A DNA stretch of 54,963 nt, taken from IMG/VR virus record IMGVR_UViG_3300046009_012335, positions 1 through 54,963 of that record. One strand, 5' to 3'. The notes below the pieces were generated by a model. That model ran no database searches. It had not been told where the DNA came from and worked only from the letters and a program-made list of their open reading frames with translations. Each line of letters opens with the position of its first letter. Position 1 is the first letter of the stretch. The stretch comes from a virus. Lineage: Duplodnaviria > Caudoviricetes. Shown here piece by piece: positions 6,517 to 54,442 of this stretch. Made by a program: the position numbers and the translations under genes.

Positions 6517-8316
6517 ATGGCAGCTGCTGATAAAACGTTAACCGATGTACTTTCTTTACTAACTAAAGTATCGTCACAGTTAAGTGTAAAGATAGATAAG
6601 CTTGAAAAGATGGTTGCAATTAAGCAACCTAAAGCAGAAATAGATAATAAAGATGTAAAAACTAAGGTTACACAAACCTCAGCAATTGATAAGCTATTAG
6701 CAACTCAACTAAAACAGACTGAACCAGAAAAGGTAGTTGAAGAAGAAACTAAAGTGCAGGTTTCAAGTTTCGGTAAAGATGCTGAAACATTTTTAACTAA
6801 ATTGATAGGTGCTACTGCACCTAAACCTACTAAACCTAAAAAAGTAAGCGAAGAGGATGGATTGGTTTCTAAGCTAATGAAATTCCTGCCTATGGTTGGT
6901 CTAGTATTAGGTGGGTTAGGTGGTTTCTTAGCATCTTTATTAAGCGGTGATTTTAAAAATGTACTAGAGCAAATTAAAGCAGGAGATTTTCTCGGTGCTT
7001 TACAAACAGCTGGTAAGATAATATTCAAAACTATACAACCGTATATACAAAGTATACCTATTATCGGTCCAATTTATTCCTTTGCTCAAGCTTATTTAGA
7101 AATAGAAAAAGGTAACATAATTCCAGGGTTAAAATATTTAGCGCAAGGATTTGTAGGTCTTTTACCACTACCGTATGCTGTAAAAGCAGCTATGATAGGT
7201 GGTGTAGAAATGATAGGATCTTTGGTTGAGAAAAAATATCCAGAAATTAAAATACCAACCGGTAAAGGTGATGATGTATTACCTATAGCATTCAATGCAA
7301 TTGGTAAAATATTGAAATTCGGTGTCTTCAAAAGATTGCCGGTACTAGGCTCAGCAATTAACTTTTATGAAGCATACCAAGCTTTTGAAAGTGGTGGAGC
7401 TGCAGGTATTGCAAAAGGTTTAATTAATTTAGGTTCAGGTATAGCTAATTTATTCCCCGGATATGGTACGCTTATATCTATAGGTTTGGATATTTTAAGC
7501 TCTTTAATCTTTTCAGAAGAAGAAGTTGTGGATACTACAACAGGTAAAACGGTAAAACGTATTAGAATGACAGATTTCTACAATACGATATTACCATATG
7601 TCAAAAGAATTCCTTTTGTAGGTAATTTAATAAATTTAGGCGAAGGTATATATGATATATCTAATGGTGATACTATGCAAGGTATCAAAAAATTAGCAAT
7701 GTCTTTGCCATTTGTGGGGGTATTGGTTGAGAGTTTTGAAGTAACAATGGGAACATATGCTAACATATATAATAAAGGCTTAACTCCTATAAGAAATTTC
7801 TACATTAATTTACAAAAGAGTATATTGAAAAATATTTTAATGACTTTACCTGACTCTTTTGGTATAAGAGGAGCGGTAGCAAAGTTTTTCGGTATTTCTT
7901 TAAATGAAGTAGATGCTTCTACTGAAAAGCTTCCAGATTTTAATTTACCAACTACACCATCAAGACAAACTTTAGAAGAAGATAGACAGAAGCAGCTAGA
8001 AACGTTCTTACCACCAGAGCAGTCTACAACCTTACCTGAAACTAATATCAATCCTAATGAAAGAGTTGAGGATATTCTTAATCAGCAGACCAAACTATCA
8101 GATGAAAATAAGAAAGTTTTAGAAAATCTTTCTGAAGCTCAAAGCTCTCTTCTATCAAAACAATTAGAAATGATGGGTAAGCAGCTCAGCATTTTAAATG
8201 AAATAAAATCTAACCTATCTAAGCCTACAAGTAATGTAGTATCAAGCCCTACTGTTGTAACTAACAATTATAACCAGGGAGTATCATTAAGAGGTTTACA
8301 AGGCGTACCAGCATAA
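6517..8316 (+). CDS. Tape measure / baseplate hub protein candidate (gp29-like)
   Basis: Repeated amphipathic (K/R)xIP(I/F/V)xG helices, coiled-coil ends, C-terminal SSPTVVTNN; baseplate context. Confidence 0.6.
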   Translation: MAAADKTLTDVLSLLTKVSSQLSVKIDKLEKMVAIKQPKAEIDNKDVKTKVTQTSAIDKLLATQLKQTEPEKVVEEETKVQVSSFGKDAETFLTKLIGATAPKPTKPKKVSEEDGLVSKLMKFLPMVGLVLGGLGGFLASLLSGDFKNVLEQIKAGDFLGALQTAGKIIFKTIQPYIQSIPIIGPIYSFAQAYLEIEKGNIIPGLKYLAQGFVGLLPLPYAVKAAMIGGVEMIGSLVEKKYPEIKIPTGKGDDVLPIAFNAIGKILKFGVFKRLPVLGSAINFYEAYQAFESGGAAGIAKGLINLGSGIANLFPGYGTLISIGLDILSSLIFSEEEVVDTTTGKTVKRIRMTDFYNTILPYVKRIPFVGNLINLGEGIYDISNGDTMQGIKKLAMSLPFVGVLVESFEVTMGTYANIYNKGLTPIRNFYINLQKSILKNILMTLPDSFGIRGAVAKFFGISLNEVDASTEKLPDFNLPTTPSRQTLEEDRQKQLETFLPPEQSTTLPETNINPNERVEDILNQQTKLSDENKKVLENLSEAQSSLLSKQLEMMGKQLSILNEIKSNLSKPTSNVVSSPTVVTNNYNQGVSLRGLQGVPA

Positions 8317-8334: not shown

Positions 8335-9573
8335 ATGGCAGATCTCTGGAAACTAATAAGAAAGGATGATAGAAACCAAACAGTCCCGGTTCTATTACCT
8401 GCTAGCAGTGCTCCAAATGTTCAATCAGATGATTTAGCTGACATTTATAGTGTTTCTAGACTATACGAAGGTGTTAATGCATCATCGGTTATAGATGTTG
8501 TTAACAAATTTCCATGGACTAACAGCCCAGAAAGCTCTCGTTTAGATACACCAACTATTCAGTTAATAGAGAAAAGACTTTTAATGAATAGTGTGTTAAC
8601 TAATTTAGCTAACTCTATTTTCACTACTGCAGATTCAGGTTCTTCTTTTTTCGGTACAGGAGCTAGATCAGCTTTACAACAAGCCATCAATGCAGGCCCA
8701 GCAGGTGTTGCTACTTTTTTACGTACACCACCACCTCCACCAGAAAATTCTTCTTCTACAGCTAATCAACAAGGTTTTGTAGGTAAATTAATATCAGAGA
8801 CTGCTCAAGCAACCATTGGTGCAATTAACTCAGTTAGAGGATCAGAAGGGGGAGTTAAGATAGCTGATGCTTTAGAAAATATATCACAACTTTATTCTTC
8901 TTTTCAATTAGGTAATCCTGTTTTATCTCCTTATGACTTTCTTTACTCTACTGAAAAGACAGGTTTTGTGTATGATTTACCATTTTTAAGCCAAAATAAT
9001 TTTAATACTACTTCTACATCATTCGGAGAGTCTAAAAGCGGTAATTTATTAGCCGGTTCAATAACTAATATATTTTCAGAATTAGCTAGAAGCTCTACTG
9101 CTTTAGTTGGTACAATTAAACCTGGTACATATATTGAACAAGCTAAACAATTTTCAATGGGTGAATCAGGAAGAACAGTAGATATATCATTTCCTCTTTT
9201 AAACACGAAAAAGTTTGAAGATATTGCATTGAATTGGCAGTTAATTTTTGGATTGATTTATCAAAATAGACCAGGTAGGGTTACAAGATCTATTATAGAT
9301 ATGCCTGTTATATATGAAGTAAATTGTCCAGGAGTAGTCTATATGCCATTTGCTTACATAAGAAGTCTTTCCATAGACTTTATAGGAAATAGAAGAGAAG
9401 TAAAAATTAATGTACCGGTAGGTGATCAAGCAAGAGGAGGATCAACAGTATTAACAACTATAGTTCCTGATGCCTATCAGATTAATATAAATGTTGAAGG
9501 TCTTAATGATGAAACAAGAAACTTTTTATATGCTAGCGTTACTCAAAGCCCTGTAACAGTAGGAGGAGTATAA
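8335..9573 (+). CDS. Baseplate tail-tube cap/initiator (gp48-like)
   Basis: GRTVDISFPLLN, PVIYEV, AYIRSLSIDFIG tube-fold pattern; upstream of gp53-like gene. Confidence 0.55.
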   Translation: MADLWKLIRKDDRNQTVPVLLPASSAPNVQSDDLADIYSVSRLYEGVNASSVIDVVNKFPWTNSPESSRLDTPTIQLIEKRLLMNSVLTNLANSIFTTADSGSSFFGTGARSALQQAINAGPAGVATFLRTPPPPPENSSSTANQQGFVGKLISETAQATIGAINSVRGSEGGVKIADALENISQLYSSFQLGNPVLSPYDFLYSTEKTGFVYDLPFLSQNNFNTTSTSFGESKSGNLLAGSITNIFSELARSSTALVGTIKPGTYIEQAKQFSMGESGRTVDISFPLLNTKKFEDIALNWQLIFGLIYQNRPGRVTRSIIDMPVIYEVNCPGVVYMPFAYIRSLSIDFIGNRREVKINVPVGDQARGGSTVLTTIVPDAYQININVEGLNDETRNFLYASVTQSPVTVGGV

Positions 9574-51710: not shown

Positions 51711-52346
51711 ATGATAGTAGTAGCACCAGAACAAAAAACAAGTCTTCTTATTAATAGATTGTATCAACCTTTCAGCTTTTGCACAGCAAGAGCTGCTATC
51801 AGGCATTTGATGTCTGAAAAGGTTAAAGGTATTGATGCAATGGGTAATGTTGTGTCTTGGTCCGGAGCTGATATGGCTAATGTAAGCTCACTGAGATGGT
51901 TTAATAATGAAGTGAACTTGTATGAAGATCAACCTTGCCTACGTAGTGCACCGGATGCTACAACCGGATATGAAAAACGCTGGGCTATTCCAACGATTTT
52001 AGTTTGCAATCATTCTTTCGGTATTCATAAGAGAAGAGGAGAGAATTGTTCTTTGAAGACCATTTATAATGTATACAAAGGAGTATGTCAGTACTGCTAT
52101 GAAAAGATACCTTATATTAGAGCAACAAAAGATCATGTAATGCCTAAGAGTTTAGGTGGATCTAATGATGACTTTAATATAGTTCTTGCATGCAGAGAGT
52201 GTAATAATAAGAAGAATAACATTTTCCCATTTCTTGATATTCATGGAAAAGAGGTAAAACCTCGTAATATCCATTTGCGCAACATAGTTCCTGAGAATGT
52301 TAAGATGAGAGAAGAGTGGAAACCTTTTTTCTTTTGGGAACATTGA
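51711..52346 (+). CDS. HNH endonuclease (tRNA-array-associated type)
   Basis: LLINRLYQP N-terminus, CQYC, TKDHVMPKSLGG, NIVLACRECNNKK. Confidence 0.92.
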   Translation: MIVVAPEQKTSLLINRLYQPFSFCTARAAIRHLMSEKVKGIDAMGNVVSWSGADMANVSSLRWFNNEVNLYEDQPCLRSAPDATTGYEKRWAIPTILVCNHSFGIHKRRGENCSLKTIYNVYKGVCQYCYEKIPYIRATKDHVMPKSLGGSNDDFNIVLACRECNNKKNNIFPFLDIHGKEVKPRNIHLRNIVPENVKMREEWKPFFFWEH

Positions 52347-52754: not shown

Positions 52755-52833
52755 GGATGGTGAGCTAGTCTGGTGATTTCAGCGCACGCCTGAAGAGCGT
52801 GATAACTTGGTTCAATTCCAAGACCATCCACCA
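52755..52833 (+). tRNA. tRNA-Phe (GAA)
   Basis: GGATGGT/ACCATCC, CACGC-CTGAAGA-GCGTG, CCA. Confidence 0.93.
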
Positions 52834-52846
52834 TAAATAAAATGAC

Positions 52847-53620
52847 ATGGCTAATTGTATTATTATAAATGGCGGTAATGGATTGTTTTTAGTTACTGCT
52901 AACGACGGTTTAGGTAAAGTTGTAAGTGAAACTAAACAATGGGAGCCATGGTTTAATATAATAGCTAAACTAACTGTATTGCCTGGTGATGCAGTAATTG
53001 ATTGCGGTGCTAACTTCGGTTATCATTCTATTACATTAGCCAATCTTATAGGGCCGCAAGGTAAGTTAGTTACGATAGAGCCTTTAAGACAAGTTTATCA
53101 ACAGCTTTGCGGTAATATGTTTCTAAACAATATTAGAAACGCTTGGTGCTTAAACAATGCTGTAGGTGATGAATTTAAAACTGTAGAAATGCTTCCGATT
53201 GATTTAGATGATAATAGCACAACTAACATTGGAGCAACGAGAGTAGGTGATGGTGGCGATAAAGTAAAAATGATTACTTTAGATAGTTTATTAGAAGATG
53301 GTCTATTTGAAGATAAAAGAGTTTCATTTATAAAGTTAGATGTGCAGGGTCATGAGATAAAAACGCTATTAGGTGCATCTAAGTTGATAGATAAATGTAG
53401 ACCAGTGATGATGATTGAAAATGAATATTGGTATTTGGAAGTTTACGGAGGTAATTCGCAAATGCTATATGATACACTTTTAAGTAGGAACTACAGTATA
53501 ATTAAAAACAATAATATTGTAGACATATTTGCAATACCTAATGAAAAGAGTCATTTGATTCCTACATTATTGCAAAGTTTTGAAGCAATAGGATTACAGA
53601 ATTTAGAAGTTTTAAGATAA
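52847..53620 (+). CDS. FkbM-family SAM-dependent methyltransferase
   Basis: IDCGANFGYHS, IEP, NAVG, TLDS, FIKLDVQGHE..L.GA...I...RP. Confidence 0.9.
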   Translation: MANCIIINGGNGLFLVTANDGLGKVVSETKQWEPWFNIIAKLTVLPGDAVIDCGANFGYHSITLANLIGPQGKLVTIEPLRQVYQQLCGNMFLNNIRNAWCLNNAVGDEFKTVEMLPIDLDDNSTTNIGATRVGDGGDKVKMITLDSLLEDGLFEDKRVSFIKLDVQGHEIKTLLGASKLIDKCRPVMMIENEYWYLEVYGGNSQMLYDTLLSRNYSIIKNNNIVDIFAIPNEKSHLIPTLLQSFEAIGLQNLEVLR

Positions 53621-53623
53621 TTT

Positions 53624-53698
53624 GCCCTTGTAGCACAGCGGTAGTGCAACAGTTTTGTAAACTGTAGGTCGTCGGTTCAAATCCGACCGGGGGCTCCA
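53624..53698 (+). tRNA. tRNA-Thr (TGT)
   Basis: Cloverleaf, ACAGT-TTTGTAA-ACTGT, CCA. Confidence 0.95.
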
Positions 53699-53701
53699 TT
53701 T

Positions 53702-53780
53702 CCGGCCGAGACAATCGGACCCGGCGCGGTAGGTTCACCATGGTTCCGTGTTAACAAGATCCTTAAAACTGTGGTACTAA
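53702..53780 (+). ncRNA. Hairpin plus H-type pseudoknot RNA candidate
   Basis: GCGCGG/CCGTGT stem whose loop ACCATGGTT pairs with downstream AACTGTGGT. Confidence 0.4.
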
Positions 53781-53813: not shown

Positions 53814-53891
53814 GTCCATTCGTGATGTCGCTGGTAAGCCGGTTCAGTTGACTAAGGAATCGGTTACAGGTTCGAAGCCTGTCGGATGGAC
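53814..53891 (+). ncRNA. tRNA-like RNA (9-bp acceptor-like stem, canonical T arm, abnormal anticodon arm, no CCA)
   Basis: GTCCATTCG/CGGATGGAC; ACAGG-TTCGAAG-CCTGT; CCGGTTC-N11-GAATCGG. Confidence 0.6.
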
Positions 53892-53903
53892 GTTAATTTT
53901 TAT

Positions 53904-54035
53904 CTCCGAGAGAGTGCGGGTGAACGCCTCTGTTAGTGGTAGAACTTCAATGATGCTAACAGGTATAAGCTACATAGAGTAAGGAATTGAAGCCTGAAAG
54001 TGTTATAGCAGCTTAATCAGCTGCCTCGGAGTCCA
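53904..54035 (+). ncRNA. 132-nt tRNA-like RNA with CCA end and predicted kissing loops
   Basis: CTCCGAG/CTCGGAG-T-CCA; GCAGC-TTAATCA-GCTGC; loop CTTCAAT complementary to loop ATTGAAG. Confidence 0.7.
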
Positions 54036-54043
54036 ATTTTTAC

Positions 54044-54364: not shown

Positions 54365-54368
54365 ATTT

Positions 54369-54432
54369 TTACTGGCTGTGCCTTTTTAGAAAAGAGGCTC
54401 GGGCTGCACGGTGAATGCAGACGGACCAGTAA
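54369..54432 (+). ncRNA. Small three-way-junction RNA candidate
   Basis: TTACTGG/CCAGTAA closing stem with GCCTTTT/AAGAGGC and CTGCA/TGCAG hairpins. Confidence 0.5.
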
Positions 54433-54442
54433 TTCATTTTAT

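Follow-up and report, generated by a model that had tools for sequence, protein, structure and literature searches.

Our analysis has shown that a 132-nt segment of an uncultured phage is a real, conserved and structured RNA that belongs to no described family and lies within tRNA arrays. No reading frame is open across all of its copies, and the RNA is non-coding. We consider it probable that these sequences form an undescribed family of stable non-coding RNAs that would be excised by tRNA enzymes and would act through two invariant loops. The original prediction, made from a single sequence, had presented the RNA as a new class of processed, CCA-ended and possibly aminoacylated tRNA mimic with two enlarged arms joined by a 7-bp kissing interaction. 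Its novelty has held up, since neither Rfam nor ARAGORN nor a blastn search of 50,697 phage records gave a match to what is a conserved, structured RNA with a tRNA-like frame.

The window, which is the whole stretch of DNA analyzed here (54,963 bases), is an IMG/VR virus record with an estimated completeness of 26%. Its tail sheath and baseplate proteins match T4-type families, and the C-terminal third of the sheath protein shares 40% identity with gp18 of KVP40-like vibriophages. These matches identify the window as part of a distant, uncultured T4-like myovirus. The DNA runs containing the stretch are labelled as lake-water metagenomes. A tRNA array occupies the plus strand from position 53624 to the end of the window, in the order Thr, a 345-base gap, Ser(tga), Tyr, a gap, Trp, a gap, Asp, Leu, Arg, Ser, Ile and Cys. 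The RNA is located in the first of these gaps, between tRNA-Thr and tRNA-Ser(tga). All of the window's ARAGORN tRNAs (12/12) end in an encoded CCA, and an A/T-rich spacer follows each CCA in the array. Upstream of the array are genes for an HNH endonuclease (51711-52346) and an FkbM-type methyltransferase (52847-53620), which look like accessory insertions. Relatives of the methyltransferase sit in unrelated contexts devoid of tRNAs, and a close relative of the phage (L012) has a different sequence where the two genes stand in the window. The 10 loci examined around these methyltransferase relatives contained no tRNAs and gave no nhmmer match to the RNA, and the gene is not syntenic.

Eleven copies of the RNA, 10 of them distinct, were recovered: the window copy, a copy in a second IMG/VR record (L176), copies at 8 of the 10 loci from a scan of a metagenome collection, and one more (L215). 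L176 was found through a 27-mer from an unusual tRNA-Arg, and its homologue, 132 bases long, likewise stands between Thr and Ser(tga). The metagenome loci came from a gapped pattern with short flanks fixed and both heptamers free, and L215 was added by a pattern in which both arms were entirely free. Some flanking bases were specified in the search patterns, which tilts the sample towards conserved copies; the seven bases of the CUUCAAU heptamer were left free. The tRNA genes are present at 10 of the 11 loci and all copies lie beside or inside runs of them, the exception being L207, a 1-kb fragment without tRNA genes. A covariance model (R1), built from nine copies, matched the RNA at full length in the window (145.5 bits). 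It also matched the 10 other loci used to build it (137.6-163.7 bits), as expected by construction, and gave 141.9 bits for L215, which is outside the training set. Among 47 related IMG/VR records, most of which are short fragments, R1 had one match, in the record of L176 itself. Of the checks suggested with the prediction, the covariance-model search added no further copy, and the covariation analysis of the 10 distinct copies showed four compensated helices.

Several other searches contributed no additional copies. An nhmmer search with the single RNA sequence found nothing in 165 loci, and an exact 28-mer of the RNA's 3′ end had 0 matches in viral contigs. A pattern with both heptamers fixed returned 22 loci, of which L176 was the sole real copy, the rest being unrelated and mostly one conserved sequence. 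A loops-free pattern found five loci in viral contigs, L176 alone being real, and among the four loci found there by a permissive pattern, L214 and L216 had no R1 match. The same permissive pattern, applied to one genome per prokaryote species, gave three loci and no homologue, the best being a 15-bit partial match. The blastn search of phage records produced nine spurious hits of 22-41 nt at E=5, none of which spans more than 31% of the query, and Rfam 15 contained no family matching the RNA on its own strand at the gathering score or E<=10. A literature search for published descriptions of such RNAs gave nothing specific. The RNA's conserved strings were absent from the literature searched, a comparison that extends to text outside the 8,495 IMG/VR candidate structured RNAs in the supplements of PMC10690425. 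L012, found by a protein-guided search, is the closest relative with a sequenced array (83% identity on the neighboring 466-aa protein). Its tRNA-Thr directly precedes tRNA-Ser (Thr-Ser-Leu-Arg, with 7-base spacers) and the RNA is missing, indicating that the RNA is dispensable for at least some relatives.

Each element of the anatomy described in the prediction was found in the sequence at the coordinates given for it (Table 1). Two details required correction: the outermost pair of the TATAA/TTATA helix (53964:54007) is U-U in 6 of the 10 copies, and the CCA end occurs in 4 of the 10. In addition, the arm 2 stem is bulged in some copies.

Table 1. Features of the 132-nt RNA and its flanks. 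Positions are those of the window; both-side changes are pairs in which both bases change with pairing kept.
Feature	Sequence	Position	Strand	Both-side changes	Remarks
Whole RNA		53904..54035	+		132 nt in the window; 130-132 nt in homologues
5′ spacer	A/T-rich, ends ...TTTAT	53893..53903	+		T at -1; same spacer type with T at -1 before all 11 copies
Acceptor-like stem, 7 bp	CTCCGAG/CTCGGAG	53904-53910/54025-54031	+	3/7	100% of cells pair; C-G, U-A and A-U at one position
A-G linker, then D-like hairpin		53911..53929	+	0/5	5 bp with one bulged base; stem never varies
D-like stem and loop	GCG-GGTGAA-CGC	53916-53927	+		Loop 6 nt here, 4 nt in 6/10 copies; 5/6 columns vary
Arm 2 stem, 8 bp	CTGTTAGT/GCTAACAG	53930-53937/53955-53962	+	5/8	Last pair is a T-G wobble
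Arm 2 loop (loop 1), 17 nt		53938-53954	+		17 nt in all copies; 0/17 columns vary
Heptamer in loop 1	CUUCAAU (CTTCAAT)	53945-53951	+		One side of the proposed loop-loop helix; identical in 10/10 distinct copies
Arm 3, at tRNA variable-arm position		53964..54007	+	0/7 (outer part)	Outer pairs nearly invariant; only wobble changes in the outer helix
Outer helix of arm 3	TATAA/TTATA	53964-53968/54003-54007	+		Encloses AGG-AATTGAAG-CCT
Inner hairpin of arm 3, 3 bp, with loop 2	AGG/CCU, loop AAUUGAAG	53982..53995	+	2/3	Two of three pairs become GAG/CUC in L215; 0/8 loop columns vary
Heptamer in loop 2	ATTGAAG	53986-53992	+		Exact complement of CTTCAAT
Loop-loop pairs (proposed)				0/7	Never vary
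T-like arm, 5 bp	GCAGC/GCTGC	54008-54012/54020-54024	+	2/5	
T-like loop, 7 nt	TTAATCA	within arm 54008..54024	+		6 nt in L176 and L209; 7/7 columns vary
3′ tail of acceptor	T-CCA	54032-54035	+		U and first C invariant; full CCA in 4/10 distinct copies
3′ spacer	ATTTTTAC	54036..54043	+		Precedes tRNA-Ser(tga)

Evidence for the proposed helices came from comparing the copies. When the 42 proposed pairs were scored in the 10 distinct copies, none of the 420 cells was unpaired. In 12 of the pairs both partners have changed and still pair, a number that none of 500 shuffles reached. As a control, the 3′ partners were slid by 1-3 columns, which left 31-44% of the cells paired. At the level of sequence, this comparison establishes the secondary structure of four helices, namely the acceptor, arm 2, the inner hairpin and the T-like arm. 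RNAalifold, run unguided, recovered these four as well as the D-like helix, to which it adds a sixth pair (9:27); in the middle of arm 3 it favors another register than the proposed one. Single-sequence folding of the window RNA gave a minimum free energy of -41.4 kcal/mol (z -2.5), a modest advantage over shuffles, 3 of 200 of which were as good, and the corresponding fold of L176 had a z of -1.4. The minimum-energy fold agrees with the proposal in the acceptor, D-like and T-like helices and departs from it in the middle of the RNA. Its pairing of 53950-53957 with 53999-54006 was rejected because it uses bases of the covarying arm 2. A trial pair, 53975:53999, was likewise rejected as it is unpaired in 6 of 9 copies. 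The comparative data favor the proposed helices over the single-sequence fold. Loops 1 and 2 are invariant at every base (17/17 and 8/8), in contrast to the free variation of the D-like and T-like loops. Between the window and L176, identity is 116/132 for the RNA, 67/75 for tRNA-Thr and 73/91 for tRNA-Ser; the RNA evolves about as slowly as its tRNA neighbors.

We were also interested in how far the resemblance to tRNA extends. The tRNA family of Rfam (RF00005) had no match over 53904-54035 at the gathering score or E<=10, and ARAGORN called neither a tRNA nor a tmRNA over the RNA in the window. With introns allowed, ARAGORN called none of nine family members at its default threshold and five of the nine at the 80% threshold, where the predicted anticodons disagreed (aca or cgg); runs on the family that left the intron option out used the lowered threshold only. 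The reading as an intron-containing tRNA, a match that would have counted against a new class, was rejected because the calls are inconsistent and the supposed introns cut across covarying helices. A tmRNA was sought with ARAGORN -m at the 80% threshold (0/9) and in Rfam, without a match. What the family does share with tRNAs is a 7-bp acceptor stem and a 5-bp T stem, both present in 10/10 distinct copies, and a single discriminator base; the acceptor and T-like helices jointly show both-side changes in 5 of 12 pairs. In place of the 5-bp stem and 7-nt loop of an anticodon arm, the family has 8 bp and 17 nt. The conserved T- and D-loop nucleotides of tRNAs are missing as well (7/7 and 5/6 columns vary, respectively), and this variability means that the tRNA elbow is not conserved. 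Moreover, acceptor pairs 1:72, 2:71 and 4:69 switch identity between copies.

The 3′ end is likewise informative. That the RNA is CCA-ended was confirmed for the window copy, but this does not extend to the family, in which CCA is encoded in 4 of 10 distinct copies and the remaining ends are UCUC, UCCU or UCCC. In comparison, 62 of the 64 ARAGORN tRNAs on the same contigs end in CCA, the two exceptions being odd '???' calls. This difference makes conserved charging unlikely, and the suggestion that the RNA is possibly aminoacylated has accordingly lost ground; CCA could be added to some copies after trimming. In our reading the RNA takes no part in decoding, nor is charging conserved across the family.

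The two hairpin loops of the RNA hold exactly complementary heptamers. When the loops were shuffled 20000 times, a perfect 7-nt complement between them appeared in 13 cases; between any two unpaired segments, one appeared in 143 of 5000 shuffles. The complementarity is unusual, although it was picked after the fact. Covariation is uninformative on the loop-loop helix because all seven of its pairs are invariant in the family. At the rate seen in the nested helices (12/35 both-side changes), about two of the seven pairs would be expected to have changed, and 0 have. This suggests that the invariance of the loops may reflect binding to something else. The fact that the seven pairs and their unpaired flanks are all frozen suggests that the sequence itself matters, beyond any pairing. 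A 7-bp kissing contact between the loops, as originally proposed, is plausible. The heptamers may meet within a single RNA or between separate molecules, or each loop may instead bind an outside partner. By eye, CUUCAAU is laid out like an anticodon loop presenting UCA, and AUUGAAG like one presenting UGA, an observation to which we give little weight.

Variants of the RNA were present in contigs from two metatranscriptome runs belonging to two studies (X16 contig 12 and X18 contig 19). In the X16 contig (219 bases), a copy of the RNA follows immediately on the upstream element. The X18 contig (151 bases) carries the changes 53982 A>G, 53983 G>A, 53994 C>T and 53995 T>C, which amount to two compensated pairs below loop 2 (AGG/CCU to GAG/CUC) and leave loop 2 itself unchanged. 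The same conversion is seen in the DNA of L215. These RNA-library data are assembled contigs from four runs in which transcript ends are not visible and DNA carry-over is possible, and they amount to a hint of transcription, short of a discrete species. The upstream gene at 52800-53602 had no cover in the four RNA runs, which carries no weight because the runs were picked by the tRNA stretch. From the tRNA-Thr gene to the end of the window, no promoter- or terminator-like site was detected on the plus strand; one promoter-like site lies just upstream of tRNA-Thr. The flanks of the RNA match the spacers of neighboring tRNAs, and spacers like the one 5′ of the RNA also separate the tRNAs of the array.

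Based on these observations, we propose the following scheme. The hosts of the RNA would be a lineage of uncultured freshwater T4-like myoviruses that carry it in their tRNA arrays, where it would be co-transcribed with the array tRNAs. The 7-bp acceptor-like stem, stacked on the 5-bp T-like stem, would form a 12-bp minihelix for tRNA end-processing enzymes. RNase P would release the 5′ end, with U at -1, and 3′-end enzymes of the host may trim the side of the U-C tail. Two arms with drifting stems would replace the anticodon and variable arms, and their apical loops (17 and 8 nt), together with most of arm 3, would be kept frozen. The complementary heptamers most likely pair, either within the molecule, giving a compact pseudoknotted fold, or between molecules, and the frozen loop flanks may offer an additional sequence-specific surface for a partner. 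After excision, the RNA would presumably act in trans as a stable folded RNA. Three parts of this scheme are inferences: that tRNA enzymes excise the RNA, which we read from the minihelix and the flanks, that its loops pair, and that it acts in trans.

Other explanations must be weighed against this scheme. One is that the invariant loops each bind an external partner, a protein or another RNA, and not each other. None of the 25 loop columns varies while the stems below them drift, which is more constraint than pairing needs. In a concrete form of this explanation, UCA followed by A in loop 1 would be codon-like and could form a 5-base pairing with the anticodon loop of tRNA-Ser(UGA), and loop 2 would then mimic the tRNA's loop as a competitor. 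The gene for tRNA-Ser(tga) directly follows the RNA in the window and L176 and is the next but one in L215. However, the neighbor is other than tRNA-Ser in the L203-type copies, L204 and L211, and the match to the anticodon loop is just 5 bases long and was made by eye; this tRNA is a partner candidate only. The loop complementarity is also improbable by chance, as the loop shuffles indicate, and we regard separate partners as unlikely. It is less probable still that the RNA is a structural module serving the array transcript in cis, for example as a processing spacer or stability element, that is functionless once released. Other non-tRNA hairpin elements do occur in the arrays, set between A/T-rich spacers of the same type, and L012, a close relative, manages without the RNA. 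Nevertheless, a spacer would not require 25 invariant loop bases and an invariant arm 3, and the RNA keeps its own boundaries exactly although its array position differs among copies.

A working tRNA of unusual shape, charged and decoding, for example reading UGA through the UCA in CUUCAAU, might also be considered. The 7+5 bp minihelix, the single discriminator base and the CCA of the window copy would fit such a role, as would the pyrimidine-U-NNN-purine layout that CUUCAAU shares by eye with anticodon loops and the weak scores (10-16 bits) that R1 gives to class II tRNAs. Yet this is very improbable given that neither Rfam (E<=10) nor ARAGORN calls a tRNA, that the heptamer lies within a 17-nt loop on an 8-bp stem, and that the elbow loops, the acceptor identity and the CCA end all fail to be conserved as they are in true tRNAs. 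The long reading frames of the window are, in addition, intact under the standard code, and no recoding of UGA is therefore evident. Least credible of all is a decaying tRNA pseudogene or a chance structure. The tRNA-like frame of the RNA, the odd tRNA-like sequence nearby (53814-53892) and the '???' ARAGORN tRNAs in L215 could be taken in that sense, but the RNA is as conserved as the adjoining functional tRNAs, with four compensated helices and 0 of 420 cells unpaired. We thus retain a stable, excised RNA acting through its two loops as the probable explanation.

A bolder version of the loop contact would have the loops pair between molecules to give dimers or closed rings, or would make loop 1 a codon-like clamp for tRNA-Ser(UGA) with loop 2 as its built-in competitor. 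Both ideas are speculative and, taken together, unlikely. If rings were true, the RNA would be a small self-assembling phage RNA from a tRNA array, in principle like pRNA rings and the ROOL and GOLLD cages. If either were true, these phage arrays would serve, beyond their tRNAs, as operons for RNA machines of several kinds.

Phage T4 offers the closest precedent in kind. RNAC (139 nt) and RNAD (119 nt) are annotated in its tRNA cluster, and the roles of the cluster-encoded species 1 and 2 RNAs are given as unknown in papers from 2010 and 2022 (PMC3014915, PMC9697503). Like the RNA described here, RNAC and RNAD are small RNAs of similar size that lie on the tRNA strand inside the tRNA cluster of a T4-type phage, so the comparison drawn with the T4 species I and II RNAs was apt as to kind. 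RNAC further resembles it in having a closing stem, two long hairpins and a T arm, but has a canonical-looking T loop, which the new family does not. R1 gave no match over the T4 RNAC and RNAD coordinates at E<=10, and scored 6.4 bits (E 9.3) near the T2 copy. Local alignment of the RNA with RNAC was no better than with shuffles (298/300 reach it). The sole similarity to RNAD is a 13-nt identity that none of 300 shuffles reached; homology on this basis was rejected, as the stretch lies in the middle of RNAD, which varies among nine T-even phages, and also differs in L215. The likeness to the T4 RNAs is one of kind and, for RNAC, of general layout; it is not homology.

With class II tRNAs the RNA shares the 7-bp acceptor and 5-bp T stem, a two-base linker, a hairpin at the D position, one discriminator base, an arm at the anticodon position and a long arm at the variable position, in addition to common flanking spacers and, in the window copy, CCA. 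It differs from them in having an 8-bp stem and 17-nt loop in place of a 5-bp and 7-nt anticodon arm, a variable-position arm of about 44 nt and unconserved T- and D-like loops, and in falling below the Rfam and ARAGORN thresholds. The pRNA of phi29-type phages is a phage RNA of about 120 nt or more whose complementary loops pair between molecules to form a ring. It is alike in size and in having two mutually complementary loops, but the new RNA has a tRNA-like frame, sits in a tRNA array and has no Rfam match at E<=10; to our knowledge, T4-type packaging motors use no RNA. In tRNA-like RNAs released by RNase P, such as mascRNA, and in the tRNA-like structures of plant viruses, a tRNA-like end recruits tRNA enzymes to eukaryotic transcripts or to the 3′ ends of RNA-virus genomes. 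These are alike in their tRNA-like end and have no relation to the new RNA in sequence or context. Finally, ROOL and GOLLD are described (PMC12286853) as structured, self-assembling phage and prophage RNAs of unknown function that are often near tRNA islands. They differ in length (about 580 to more than 800 nt), their structures are unrelated to that of the new RNA, and the new RNA matches no Rfam family.

Phage tRNA clusters are usually annotated as tRNAs and spacers, and here a well-supported RNA family was hidden inside one. It appears to borrow the end-structure of tRNA for release around an unrelated, highly constrained core. RNAs of this kind are known from T4, and another family, unrelated to those, whose secondary structure is clear and which has two loops to test, provides a new handle on their function. 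The RNA is short, and the proposed loop contact is accessible to simple mutants and gels. Its neighbors in the array look similar in kind, and at least three further unannotated structured elements are present in the array of the window.

One of these, an element of about 80 nt, lies directly after tRNA-Thr (53699-53779) and is also found at L215:8340-8421, on the minus strand of L176 (4692-4775) and in L209. Its crossing helices make an H-type pseudoknot. In three distinct sequences, its 16 pairs have 47/47 cells paired and five both-side changes (reached by 11/500 shuffles), four of which are in the 7-bp knot helix. This helix is followed by G-CCA in L215, L176 and L209, like an acceptor end, and by CTA in the window. 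The sequence at 53814-53892 is tRNA-like. Its 7-bp acceptor includes one wobble, its T arm (ACAGG-TTCGAAG-CCTGT) looks canonical, and at the anticodon position it has a 7-bp stem with an 11-nt loop. It encodes no CCA, is called by neither ARAGORN nor Rfam and is absent from L176 and L215; a near copy with five differences occurs in an RNA-library contig. Between tRNA-Trp and tRNA-Asp, a non-tRNA element (54365-54442) has a closed two-hairpin fold of -24.5 kcal/mol (z -2.8; 4/200 shuffles as good), and its loop CGGTGAA resembles the D-like loop of the 132-nt RNA. An adapter-flanked, cDNA-derived contig (X17, 54291-54426) runs from approximately the 5′ end of tRNA-Trp into this element.

Further unusual sequences are present in the arrays of two other loci. 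L215 contains two ARAGORN tRNAs with four-base 'anticodons' (8180-8255, gcca, and 8563-8652, ataa) and no CCA; the latter is of the Ser-like class II type and separates the RNA from tRNA-Ser(tga). In L211, a 105-base tRNA-like gene (1145-1249) goes uncalled by ARAGORN although its acceptor, D arm, T arm and CCA are normal. Its anticodon-like loop contains TAT, its variable region is enlarged by an insert of about 33 nt, and at 15.8 bits it is the best R1 match outside the family. Runs of additional non-tRNA elements, ending in ...CCACCA or ...CACA and then ATTTT, are found at L211:1441-1735 and L215:8755-8850, and among them one hairpin loop has 11 bases, GGTAGAACTTC, in common with loop 1.
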